This document shows, piece after piece, positions 6,501 to 51,034 of a stretch of 64,000 bases of DNA; position 1 is the first letter of the stretch; every line of letters begins with the position of its first letter. The stretch is from the NCBI RefSeq assembly GCF_003334335.1, contig NZ_QOWQ01000008.1. The stretch is one strand, 5' to 3'. The DNA comes from Escherichia coli. Lineage in GTDB: Bacteria; Pseudomonadota; Gammaproteobacteria; Enterobacterales; Enterobacteriaceae. The notes beneath the pieces are model-generated. The model did not search any database. It saw only the letters and a program-made list of their open reading frames with translations, and was not told where the DNA came from. Made by a program: the position numbers and the translations under genes.

Positions 6501-6539
6501 CAAAGCGCACTTTGTCAAAAATCTAACCTACTTTTTAAT

Positions 6540-6833
6540 TCAGGGAATTACCGCAAAGCCCACGCCATCATACCCAACGTAACAAAACTCAGGCACGTTC
6601 CCCACTCGCCCCGAGAAAAATAGCATTAATGCGCCCAGCGCCAGCATAAAAATTTTGAGCAGAAGGTAAATTGTTGGCGTGATAAGGATATTACAAACTT
6701 CAATAATACCGGCAAGTCCGACACCCAGCATGGCAATAACCACCGCCAAAAATTGCGCCAGTATGGGGATGCCGAAAAAAGTCATTACCAGCGAGGTCAA
6801 AATCCATTTTCTGTTTTGCATTATTCTTTCCAT
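6540..6833 (-). CDS. small hydrophobic hypothetical membrane protein (97 aa); possibly the gene annotated yzgL in K-12
   Basis: ORF track 97 aa, strongly hydrophobic, sits between REP cluster and glgP; coding status uncertain. Confidence 0.4.
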   Translation of the reverse strand: MERIMQNRKWILTSLVMTFFGIPILAQFLAVVIAMLGVGLAGIIEVCNILITPTIYLLLKIFMLALGALMLFFSGRVGNVPEFCYVGYDGVGFAVIP

Positions 6834-23737: not shown

Positions 23738-23832
23738 AAAAAAAAAGCCAGCACCCGGCTGGCTAAGTAATACTGGAAGCAATGTGAGCAATGTCGTGCT
23801 TTCAGGTTCTCCGCGAGGGTCTTCCTGATCGC
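23738..23832 (-). ncRNA. ryhB: Fur-repressed iron-sparing small RNA RyhB
   Basis: Minus strand reads GCGATCAGGAAGACCCTCGCGGAGAACCTGAAAGCACGACATTGCTCACATTGCTTCCAGTATTACTTAGCCAGCCGGGTGCTGGC followed by T9 (intrinsic terminator); matches the RyhB sequence from memory; lies in the yhhX-yhhY spacer. Confidence 0.92.
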
Positions 23833-47648: not shown

Positions 47649-47788
47649 CTTTATCCCTCATCGGAAAATGCGGAAATAAGCATACCCTGCCAGTTATGGT
47701 GTTGTCATCCGTCCACCCTCGCCACTAAACTGGAAGCAAGACCGTAGGCATTCCGCTTACGAAAAAATAACGAATTCAAGGAACTAAG

Positions 47789-48415
47789 ATGCTTTGGTCG
47801 TTTATCGCTGTCTGTCTTTCCGCATGGCTATCTGTGGATGCATCGTATCGTGGGCCAACCTGGCAACGCTGGGTGTTTAAACCGTTAACCCTTCTTCTCC
47901 TGCTGTTACTGGCCTGGCAAGCGCCGATGTTCGACGCCATTAGCTATCTGGTGCTGGCAGGGCTGTGCGCCTCACTGCTGGGCGATGCGCTAACCCTGTT
48001 GCCACGTCAACGTCTGATGTACGCCATCGGCGCGTTTTTCCTCTCGCACCTGCTGTACACCATCTATTTCGCCAGTCAGATGACGCTCTCTTTCTTCTGG
48101 CCTCTACCACTGGTGCTGCTGGTTCTGGGTGCGCTGTTACTGGCGATTATCTGGACGCGCCTGGAAGAGTACCGTTGGCCTATCTGCACGTTTATCGGCA
48201 TGACGCTGGTGATGGTGTGGCTGGCAGGTGAACTGTGGTTCTTCCGTCCGACCGCTCCGGCGCTCTCTGCGTTTGTTGGCGCTTCGTTGCTGTTTATCAG
48301 TAACTTTGTCTGGCTGGGGAGCCACTATCGCCGACGCTTCCGTGCGGATAACGCGATTGCTGCGGCCTGCTACTTTGCCGGTCACTTCCTGATCGTCCGC
48401 TCGCTGTATCTCTGA
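47789..48415 (+). CDS. yhhN: YhhN-family inner membrane protein
   Basis: ORF track 208 aa, polytopic. Confidence 0.88.
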
Positions 48416-48421
48416 TAAAAC

Positions 48422-48453
48422 TTGACTCTGGAGTCGACTCCAGAGTGTATCCT
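48422..48453 (+). promoter_or_regulatory. zntA promoter with ZntR (MerR-type) operator
   Basis: TTGACT -35, 20-bp spacer containing dyad ACTCTGGAGTCGACTCCAGAGT, -10 TATCCT; long spacer is typical of MerR-family promoters; ~35 bp upstream of zntA ATG. Confidence 0.8.
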
Positions 48454-48488
48454 TCGGTTAATGAGAAAAAACTTAACCGGAGGATGCC

Positions 48489-50687
48489 ATGTCGACTCCT
48501 GACAATCACGGCAAGAAAGCCCCTCAATTTGCTGCGTTCAAACCGCTAACCACGGTACAGAACGCCAACGACTGTTGCTGCGACGGCGCATGTTCCAGCA
48601 CGCCAACTCTCTCTGAAAACGTCTCCGGCACCCGCTATAGCTGGAAAGTCAGCGGCATGGACTGCGCCGCCTGTGCGCGCAAGGTAGAAAATGCCGTGCG
48701 CCAGCTTGCAGGCGTGAATCAGGTGCAGGTGTTGTTCGCCACCGAAAAACTGGTGGTCGATGCCGACAATGACATTCGTGCACAAGTTGAATCTGCGCTG
48801 CAAAAAGCAGGCTATTCCCTGCGCGATGAACAGGCCGCCGAAGAACCGCAAGCATCACGCCTGAAAGAGAATCTGCCGCTGATTACGCTAATCGTGATGA
48901 TGGCAATCAGCTGGGGTCTGGAGCAGTTCAATCATCCGTTCGGGCAACTGGCGTTTATCGCGACCACGCTGGTTGGGCTGTACCCGATTGCTCGTCAGGC
49001 ATTACGGTTGATCAAATCCGGCAGCTACTTCGCCATTGAAACCTTAATGAGCGTAGCCGCTATTGGTGCACTGTTTATTGGCGCAACGGCTGAAGCTGCG
49101 ATGGTGTTGCTGCTGTTTTTGATTGGTGAACGACTGGAAGGCTGGGCCGCCAGCCGCGCGCGTCAGGGCGTTAGCGCGTTAATGGCGCTGAAACCAGAAA
49201 CCGCCACGCGCCTGCGTAAGGGTGAGCGGGAAGAGGTGGCGATTAACAGCCTGCGCCCTGGCGATGTGATTGAAGTCGCCGCAGGTGGGCGTTTGCCTGC
49301 CGACGGTAAACTGCTCTCACCGTTTGCCAGTTTTGATGAAAGCGCCCTGACCGGCGAATCCATTCCGGTGGAGCGCGCAACGGGCGATAAAGTCCCTGCT
49401 GGTGCCACCAGCGTAGACCGTCTGGTGACGTTGGAAGTGCTGTCAGAACCGGGAGCCAGCGCCATTGACCGGATTCTGAAACTGATCGAAGAAGCCGAAG
49501 AGCGTCGCGCTCCCATTGAGCGGTTTATCGACCGTTTCAGCCGTATCTATACGCCCGCGATTATGGCCGTCGCTCTGCTGGTGACGCTGGTGCCACCGCT
49601 GCTGTTTGCCGCCAGCTGGCAGGAGTGGATTTATAAAGGGCTGACGCTGCTGCTGATTGGCTGCCCGTGTGCGTTAGTTATCTCAACGCCTGCGGCGATT
49701 ACCTCCGGGCTGGCGGCGGCAGCGCGTCGTGGGGCGTTGATTAAAGGCGGAGCGGCGCTGGAACAGCTGGGTCGTGTTACTCAGGTGGCGTTTGATAAAA
49801 CCGGTACGCTGACCGTCGGTAAACCGCGCGTTACCGCGATTCATCCGGCAACGGGTATTAGTGAATCTGAACTGCTGACACTGGCGGCGGCGGTCGAGCA
49901 AGGCGCGACGCATCCACTGGCGCAAGCCATCGTACGCGAAGCACAGGTTGCTGAACTCGCCATTCCCACCGCCGAATCACAGCGGGCGCTGGTCGGGTCT
50001 GGCATTGAAGCGCAGGTTAACGGTGAGCGCGTATTGATTTGCGCTGCCGGGAAACATCCCGCTGATGCATTTACTGGTTTAATTAACGAACTGGAAAGCG
50101 CCGGGCAAACGGTAGTGCTGGTAGTACGTAACGATGACGTGCTTGGTGTCATTGCGTTACAGGATACCCTGCGCGCCGATGCTGCAACTGCCATCAGTGA
50201 ACTGAACGCGCTGGGCGTCAAAGGGGTGATCCTCACCGGCGATAATCCACGCGCAGCGGCGGCAATTGCCGGGGAGCTGGGGCTGGAGTTTAAAGCGGGC
50301 CTGTTGCCGGAAGATAAAGTCAAAGCGGTGACCGGGCTGAATCAACATGCGCCGCTGGCGATGGTCGGTGACGGTATTAACGACGCGCCAGCGATGAAAG
50401 CTGCCGCCATCGGGATTGCAATGGGTAGCGGCACAGACGTGGCGCTGGAAACCGCCGACGCAGCATTAACCCATAACCACCTGCGCGGCCTGGTGCAAAT
50501 GATTGAACTGGCACGCGCCACTCACGCCAATATCCGCCAGAACATCACTATTGCGCTGGGGCTGAAAGGGATCTTCCTCGTCACCACGCTGTTAGGGATG
50601 ACCGGGTTGTGGCTGGCAGTGCTGGCAGATACGGGGGCGACGGTGCTGGTGACAGCGAATGCGTTAAGATTGTTGCGCAGGAGATAA
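48489..50687 (+). CDS. zntA: Zn/Cd/Pb-exporting P1B-type ATPase ZntA
   Basis: ORF track 732 aa; N-terminal GMDCAACA, transmembrane CPC, phosphorylation site DKTGTLT. Confidence 0.96.
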   Translation: MSTPDNHGKKAPQFAAFKPLTTVQNANDCCCDGACSSTPTLSENVSGTRYSWKVSGMDCAACARKVENAVRQLAGVNQVQVLFATEKLVVDADNDIRAQVESALQKAGYSLRDEQAAEEPQASRLKENLPLITLIVMMAISWGLEQFNHPFGQLAFIATTLVGLYPIARQALRLIKSGSYFAIETLMSVAAIGALFIGATAEAAMVLLLFLIGERLEGWAASRARQGVSALMALKPETATRLRKGEREEVAINSLRPGDVIEVAAGGRLPADGKLLSPFASFDESALTGESIPVERATGDKVPAGATSVDRLVTLEVLSEPGASAIDRILKLIEEAEERRAPIERFIDRFSRIYTPAIMAVALLVTLVPPLLFAASWQEWIYKGLTLLLIGCPCALVISTPAAITSGLAAAARRGALIKGGAALEQLGRVTQVAFDKTGTLTVGKPRVTAIHPATGISESELLTLAAAVEQGATHPLAQAIVREAQVAELAIPTAESQRALVGSGIEAQVNGERVLICAAGKHPADAFTGLINELESAGQTVVLVVRNDDVLGVIALQDTLRADAATAISELNALGVKGVILTGDNPRAAAAIAGELGLEFKAGLLPEDKVKAVTGLNQHAPLAMVGDGINDAPAMKAAAIGIAMGSGTDVALETADAALTHNHLRGLVQMIELARATHANIRQNITIALGLKGIFLVTTLLGMTGLWLAVLADTGATVLVTANALRLLRRR

Positions 50688-50765
50688 GGCAAACCGATCG
50701 CAACATTGAGCGCGATCGGTCCCCTCGCCCCTCTGGGGAGAGGGTTAGGGTGAGGGGAAAAGGCG
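50688..50765. repeat. palindromic intergenic repeat (boxC-like) downstream of zntA
   Basis: ACCGATCGC...GCGATCGGT hairpin followed by CCCCTCGCCCCTCTGGGGAGAGGGTTAGGGTGAGGGG; gives the spurious minus ORF 50581..50778 (PFPLTLTLSPEGRG). Confidence 0.6.
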
Positions 50766-50788
50766 GCATCGAAGCCAATCAGCCCCTA

Positions 50789-51034
50789 TCAACCGCCTTT
50801 ACGAATCAAATAACGATAAGGCAGTCCATCCGTCTCTTTAGCAACCAGTTCGTGTTCCATAAAGGTACAAAACCCAGGAATATCGCGGGTAGTGGCCGGA
50901 TCGTCGGCGATAATCAGCAACGTTTCGCCAGGCTGCATATTGCGCACGGTTTTGCGCACCATCATCACCGGTTCCGGGCAGCGCAGGCCAAGCGCGTCGA
51001 GTGTGTGGTCAGGGCTGGAAAAGAGATCGGTCAT
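50789..51034 (-). CDS. tusA: sulfur carrier protein TusA
   Basis: ORF track 81 aa; conserved CPxP cysteine (LRCPEPVMM). Confidence 0.93.

Follow-up and report, generated by a model that had tools for sequence, protein, structure and literature searches.

The promoter described here is almost certainly PzntA, a sigma-70 promoter that drives zntA, the gene of the Zn/Cd/Pb efflux ATPase, and its palindrome the operator bound by ZntR, a zinc sensor of the MerR family. The element is the known PzntA/ZntR promoter-operator, already described and found here in another E. coli strain; the stretch of DNA that was analysed (the window, 64 kb) is E. coli chromosome, from the yhhN-zntA-tusA region. Our own evidence concerns the anatomy of the site, its singularity in the window, the identity of the operator, its conservation, its likeness to other MerR-type promoters and the presence of zntR; ZntR binding, the response to zinc and the DNA distortion are taken from published work. 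The one part of the analysis that may be new is a predicted hairpin of the zntA leader, which pairs the −10 hexamer and the discriminator with the Shine-Dalgarno (SD) sequence.

Anatomy of the zntA promoter

The features of the locus are collected in Table 1. Direct reading of the DNA bore out the two hexamers, TTGACT and TATCCT, that the sequence-only reading had placed 20 bp apart, as well as its 22-bp perfect palindrome: ACTCTGGAGTCGACTCCAGAGT is its own reverse complement, with two arms of 11 nt and no gap. The same reading had located the palindrome in the spacer. This holds in that it fills 19 of the 20 spacer bases and ends 1 nt short of the −10 hexamer; it is, however, not confined there, as its first three nucleotides (ACT) are also the last three of the −35 hexamer. 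An over-long spacer of 19–20 bp and a dyad that overlaps the −35 hexamer and fills the spacer, both expected of a MerR-type promoter, are thus found at zntA. The over-long spacer also explains that a standard sigma-70 scan with spacers of 16–18 bp did not report this promoter. The stop codon of yhhN lies 6 nt before the −35 hexamer and 10 nt upstream of the palindrome, which itself ends 42 nt upstream of the zntA start codon.

Table 1. Coordinates of the features in the 64-kb window
Feature	Coordinates	Strand	Basis
yhhN coding sequence	47789–48415	+	ORF list; RefSeq annotation of identical loci
−35 hexamer TTGACT	48422–48427	+	direct reading; 5/6 to TTGACA; named as the PzntA −35 in PMC3431237
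ZntR operator ACTCTGGAGTCGACTCCAGAGT, perfect 11+11 palindrome, centre between 48435 and 48436	48425–48446	unstranded	matches the published site
Spacer CTGGAGTCGACTCCAGAGTG, 20 bp	48428–48447	+	direct reading; 20 bp also in PMC1526738, PMC7911910, PMC3431237
−10 hexamer TATCCT	48448–48453	+	direct reading
Leader inverted repeat, 5′ arm: G, −10 hexamer and discriminator TCGGTTAA	48447–48461	+	complementarity, folding
Inferred transcription start (A), 7–8 nt past the −10	48460–48461	+	usual distance from −10 to +1
Leader inverted repeat, 3′ arm TTAACCGGAGGATGC, holding the SD GGAGG (48479–48483)	48473–48487	+	complementarity, folding
zntA coding sequence, 732-aa Zn/Cd/Pb P-type ATPase	48489–50687	+	ORF list; NCBIfam NF033775; RefSeq annotation
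RyhB small RNA, known gene	23739–23803	−	Rfam RF00057, 83 bits (gathering score 55)

The location at zntA was also confirmed. The product of the downstream ORF scored 1447.5 bits against NCBIfam NF033775 (cut-off 1240) and is ZntA in the RefSeq annotation as well, so that the gene under control is the cognate metal-efflux gene. The 3.1 kb from 47700 to 50800 recur with 100% identity in many E. coli genomes of RefSeq. Every one of the 5,426 complete E. coli genomes carries the yhhN-zntA-tusA locus, and in each of them the 121 bp around the promoter were recovered with at least 95% identity. At the gathering threshold, Rfam matched the window at RyhB alone, and no Rfam family matched at the zntA promoter and leader.

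Codons 1 to 5 of zntA (ATG TCG ACT CCT GA, 48491–48502) repeat GTCGACTCCAGA, which is the right operator half, with 11 of 12 positions matching. The string ATGTCGACTCC occurs in 42 of the 108 related loci described below, ATGTCGACnCC in 23 further ones, and the exact half-site ATGTCGACTCCAGA in several genera. This repeat may mean that the N-terminal codons descend from a common ancestor, that a weak additional half-site is present, or that the repeat pairs with the SD sequence (GGAG/CUCC).

Identity with the published ZntR operator

The ZntR recognition site has been published as a 22 bp palindrome of this very consensus, lying in a 20 bp promoter spacer, and the 22-mer of the window is identical to it at 22/22 positions (PMC1526738). 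Hobman et al. give TTGACT as the −35 of PzntA; the ZntR promoter is singled out as the 20-bp exception among the 19-bp promoters of the MerR family, and DNase I footprinting showed that ZntR protects the −35, the spacer and the −10 (PMC3431237). The 20-bp spacer was restated elsewhere, together with an identical operator in Enterobacter (PMC7911910), whereas another study gives the PzntA spacer as 19 bp (PMC9189660). The latter count would make the −10 hexamer GTATCC. Because this hexamer lacks the A2/T6 signature, we take the spacer as 20 bp, a count that the sequence and the register seen across species support. The PzntA/ZntR operator of E. coli K-12 has the same −35, 20-bp spacer, 22-bp dyad and −10 TATCCT upstream of zntA, without any difference. 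The primary papers on it are Brocklehurst et al. 1999 and Outten et al. 1999; PMC1526738 and PMC3431237 summarise it.

Singularity of the site within the window

The zntA promoter architecture is statistically singular within the window. The dyad is the sole gapless palindrome with a half-length of at least 8 in the 64 kb, the runner-up reaching 7, and a half-length of at least 11 was attained anywhere in only 5 of 200 composition-matched Markov-1 random windows. Searched with up to three mismatches, the exact 22-mer occurred once in the window and not at all in 100 shuffles. We then scanned both strands for the whole arrangement, that is, a −35 hexamer matching TTGACA at 5/6 positions or better, a spacer of 19–20 bp, a −10 of the form (T/C)AnnnT and a dyad of at least 9/11. 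The zntA site alone was returned, while the random windows gave a mean of 0.05 sites, weaker dyads included.

Comparison with other MerR-type promoters

A motif comparison with other MerR-family operators had been proposed as a check, and it was run on upstream regions of K-12. The promoters of copA and cueO, controlled by CueR, and of soxS, controlled by SoxR, have the same layout (Table 2). Like zntA, they combine a near-consensus −35 with an over-long spacer and answer to homologous regulators; their dyad starts inside the −35 hexamer and is centred 13–14 bp from its left edge, and their −10 is weak with a C at position 5. They differ from zntA in that a 19-bp spacer houses arms of 7 or 9 bp around an odd centre, in place of 20 bp and a gapless 11+11 dyad. 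The extra base pair of zntA amounts to about half a base pair on each side of the dyad centre.

Table 2. Promoter elements at zntA and at three MerR-type promoters of K-12
Promoter	−35	Spacer (bp)	−10
zntA	TTGACT	20	TATCCT
copA (K-12)	TTGACC	19	TAACCT
cueO (K-12)	TTGACC	19	TATGCT
soxS (K-12)	TTTACC	19	TATACT

The founding member of the family, MerR at PmerT of Tn21/Tn501, resembles the zntA system in its −35 TTGACT (PMC3431237), in an operator placed in the spacer, and in a regulator that represses when free of metal and activates by distortion when metal is bound (PMC7911910, PMC9909328). PmerT, however, has a 19-bp spacer and a 7-4-7 dyad in contrast to the 20 bp and 11+11 of zntA. Moreover, merR is transcribed divergently from the same region and is autoregulated, whereas zntR lies about 167 kb away in K-12 and has no ZntR site in front of it (PMC1526738).

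Conservation of the operator across genera

The 18-bp core TCTGGAGTCGACTCCAGA was scanned in one genome per species of bacteria and archaea, and 111 loci were obtained. Since these were chosen by the exact 18-mer, the core is conserved by construction, and only the flanks, the register and the gene downstream can serve as independent evidence. Nearly all loci came from more than 20 genera of Enterobacteriaceae and from Pantoea and Erwinia (Erwiniaceae). In 108 of the 111, TTGAC stands directly before the core, giving a −35 TTGACT in the same register, and in every one of these 108 oriented loci the hexamer exactly 20 bp later has the form xAnnnT, with A2 and T6. The −10 variants were TATCCT (51 loci), TATGCT (32), CATACT (11) and others (14). 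The full 22-mer was identical in 105 of the 108 loci while the flanks vary. A ZntA-like ORF follows on the same strand in 101 of 108, mostly 44–48 nt past the core, and four of the seven remaining loci run out of DNA. Directly upstream, a co-oriented yhhN was found in about 104 of 108.

One locus, from Kluyvera genomosp. 3, is unlike all others in that about 1.3 kb separate the end of yhhN from the zntA promoter; both the promoter and the leader hairpin are intact despite this insertion.

Several matches lie outside the zntA context. Enterobacteriaceae bacterium LSJC7 and a related MAG (loci L019, reverse strand, ~47–64, and L050, reverse strand, ~1565–1582) carry the core in a promoter-like frame, TTGATT-20 bp-TACATT/TACCCT. 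Some 52–55 nt downstream, both encode a 116-aa protein whose N-terminus is hydrophobic and signal peptide-like and which is weakly BsmA/DUF1471-like (NCBIfam NF011433, E 1e-5, below the cut-off). This gene is a possible extra target of ZntR.

An identical 18-bp core adjoins MerR-family regulator genes in the myxobacterium Labilithrix luteola (L096, ~6532–6549) and in the xanthomonad Pseudoxanthomonas kalamensis (L111, ~963–980). In the latter, TTGACT-20 bp-CATACT is followed by the regulator gene, which suggests that the regulator is autoregulated, in contrast to enteric zntR, which is not autoregulated in such a manner. Matches in an Acidobacteria MAG (L052) and a Steroidobacter MAG (L061) had no clear context.

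The regulator and activation by DNA distortion

No zntR was found in the 64-kb window (best tblastn E 0.2). Its DNA is, however, present in 5426/5426 complete E. coli genomes, including those that are 100% identical at the zntA locus, and this species-wide presence places the cognate regulator in the genome. In K-12, zntR occupies 3,438,705–3,439,130 and zntA lies at 3,606,451, about 167 kb apart. The only ZntR entry of the PDB is 1Q08, which covers the C-terminal part (residues 43–141), and no ZntR-DNA structure was found there. ZntR does match CueR chains, including those of the CueR-RNAP-promoter complexes 6LDI/7C17 and 6XH7/6XH8 (E ~1e-22).

With a 20-bp spacer, the −35 and −10 hexamers would be too distant and out of phase for RNA polymerase, and the bare promoter would be weak. 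A ZntR dimer would sit on the dyad with or without metal. In the absence of zinc it would keep the promoter off or slightly repress it; with Zn(II), or else Cd or Pb, bound, it would kink and underwind the centre of the dyad, and this distortion would shorten and re-phase the spacer, leading to the open complex and to induction of zntA. MerR-family regulators have been shown to occupy the dyad in both states, the metal-bound form realigning the −35 and −10 by DNA distortion, and their response is abolished by a shorter spacer (PMC9909328, PMC7911910). Both apo- and Zn-ZntR bind the zntA operator-promoter of Salmonella (PMC5709419). A PzntA reporter was repressed at low zinc and activated at high zinc up to about 10-fold relative to a zntR knockout; when the ZntR operator was moved into an ideally spaced promoter, activation was gone and only repression was seen (PMC9189660). 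The architecture of ZntR-mediated activation by DNA distortion, as the sequence-only reading had put it, is supported by the identity of the operator (PMC1526738), by the 20-bp exception (PMC3431237) and by the reporter data (PMC9189660). These last data also contradict the case named as refuting it, namely a zinc induction unaffected by deletion of zntR. Published experiments that decide the matter include deletion of zntR, mutation of the operator and of the spacer, footprinting, and KMnO4 or nuclease probes of the distorted DNA.

Other readings of the palindrome

The palindrome might act mainly at the RNA level, as a hairpin that terminates or stabilises the yhhN transcript, its place between the hexamers being secondary. 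It lies directly downstream of the yhhN end (48415), folds as RNA into a 9-bp stem, and was returned by a pattern scan as terminator-like on the minus strand, where CAAGTTTTAT follows the hairpin. On the + strand, however, which is the sense of yhhN, the hairpin is followed by GTATCCTTCGG, without a T-run, and the scan found no terminator-like site between 48415 and 48489, no GC-rich hairpin with a U-run being present; on the minus strand, no gene ends near the dyad. The 22-mer is also invariant in 105/108 loci, without compensated changes and between varying flanks, as fits a DNA site read by a protein, and its sequence is that of the published ZntR operator (PMC1526738). A mainly RNA-level function is thus very improbable. 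The minus-strand terminator-like dyad (48425–48446) could at most stop antisense transcripts arising inside zntA, because no minus-strand gene ends there.

It could also be supposed that ZntR is a steric repressor only, acting without distortion on an ordinary promoter whose hexamers would be reassigned with a spacer of 19 bp or less. ZntR indeed represses at low zinc and does nothing but repress once its site is placed downstream of a promoter, and the paper reporting this counts a 19-bp spacer (PMC9189660). Against this, the same work found that high zinc raises expression ~10-fold above that of the zntR knockout, and that this activation is lost at ideal hexamer spacing. The 19-bp count moreover yields the −10 GTATCC, devoid of the A2 and T6 that are invariant at the 20-bp register in 108 loci. 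The likelihood of simple steric repression appears negligible, and we retain the ZntR operator in a 20-bp promoter spacer, activated by DNA distortion.

A predicted leader hairpin pairing the −10 region with the Shine-Dalgarno sequence

Just downstream of the operator lies an inverted repeat (Table 1) whose arms, 48447–48461 and 48473–48487, form 15 pairs, two of them G-U. The RNA from 48420 to 48495, which also includes the dyad hairpin, folds with a minimum free energy of −35.8 kcal/mol as compared to −16.4 ± 2.9 kcal/mol for shuffled sequences (z = −6.7). In a read-through RNA begun upstream, the unpaired probability of the SD is 0.0. An RNA from the inferred start (~48460) does not contain the 5′ arm and leaves the SD open in its minimum-energy fold; in longer RNAs with this start, the SD is partly paired in the ensemble (unpaired probability 0.03–0.5).

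Alignment A1 comprises 71 distinct enteric leaders. In these closely related sequences, from which the structure had itself been derived, the named helix was paired in 88% of the cells, versus 28–56% if the partner was slid by 1–3 columns. Compensatory changes were clear at two positions (U-A in 47 leaders and G-C in 9; G-C in 62 and A-U in 7), and the covariation score was reached by 0/500 shuffles. RNAalifold found no consensus structure on A1, so that the hairpin claim rests on the named structure, the single-sequence folds and the slid and shuffled controls. In the single-sequence folds the SD was paired in 71/71 leaders, and the sense strand was more stable than the antisense strand in 63/71 (means of −20.8 and −16.7 kcal/mol). 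Such a sense-strand bias, expected if G-U pairs matter in the sense RNA, speaks against a site that works as DNA or is read by a protein. The covariation is thin and clusters by phylogeny, and the number of compensatory events is probably small.

Loop length is not the same in Escherichia, in Citrobacter and in the remaining leaders, a variation that the hairpin tolerates, and Pantoea and Erwinia have unrelated GC-rich hairpins in the same place. The loop of Escherichia (48462–48472) is the shorter one, TGAGAAAAAAC. Most other Enterobacteriaceae have a highly conserved loop, AATGAGAAAATTATCATT (A1 columns 18–32), which is itself an AATGA-N8-TCATT inverted repeat and would fall at the extreme 5′ end of the PzntA mRNA. 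This loop was considered as a Fur/Zur box and rejected: the match is poor by eye, E. coli does not have part of the loop, and there is no clear Zur site at zntA (PMC11618457).

Between yhhN and the zntA promoter, there is no terminator on the + strand. Transcripts reading through from yhhN would fold the 15-bp hairpin and hide the ribosome-binding site of zntA, whereas ZntR-activated transcripts from the inferred start at ~48460 would not carry the 5′ arm and would be translatable. On the strength of the conserved pairing and the predicted folds, we consider it possible, albeit doubtful, that the hairpin silences the translation of yhhN read-through transcripts and that PzntA-initiated ones escape. 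The inner stem alone, inside the PzntA mRNA, could be an ordinary 5′-terminal hairpin. A decay of the outer stem was looked for in loci devoid of an upstream yhhN, but none was available among the 108, and the Kluyvera locus with the 1.3-kb insertion keeps the stem.

No measured zntA transcription start was found in the supplements of PMC3415461 or PMC4782308 (the latter searched by K-12 coordinates of both genome versions), and the literature yielded nothing relevant on a zntA leader or UTR element or on yhhN-zntA co-transcription. An RpoS-SELEX peak that had been assigned to the interval from yhhN to sirA falls within zntA and has no bearing on the leader.

The transposons IS10 and IS50 offer a precedent: only transcripts entering from outside form a hairpin that occludes the ribosome-binding site. 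This fold-back inhibition of read-through transcripts was reportedly described by Davis, Simons and Kleckner in 1985. Its structural feature, an upstream segment that pairs with the ribosome-binding site, is found in the zntA leader, where, as in IS10/IS50, sequence upstream of the element's own start (here an inferred one) is complementary to that site. The systems differ in that the 5′ arm of zntA consists of the −10 and discriminator of a regulated chromosomal promoter, with a predicted role, while that of IS10/IS50 is the transposon end.

Significance

PzntA/ZntR is a reference case of transcription activation by DNA distortion and the basis of zinc and cadmium whole-cell biosensors. Its rediscovery in an E. 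coli window brings no new biology, but it confirms that a true regulatory element was recognised from the sequence alone; the invariant 20-bp register that emerged from the comparison across genera is a useful by-product. If the leader hairpin does act on read-through transcripts, it would add a second, post-transcriptional layer of control and insulate the synthesis of ZntA from upstream transcription. This would matter for the design of biosensors and for how leaky synthesis of ZntA is avoided.
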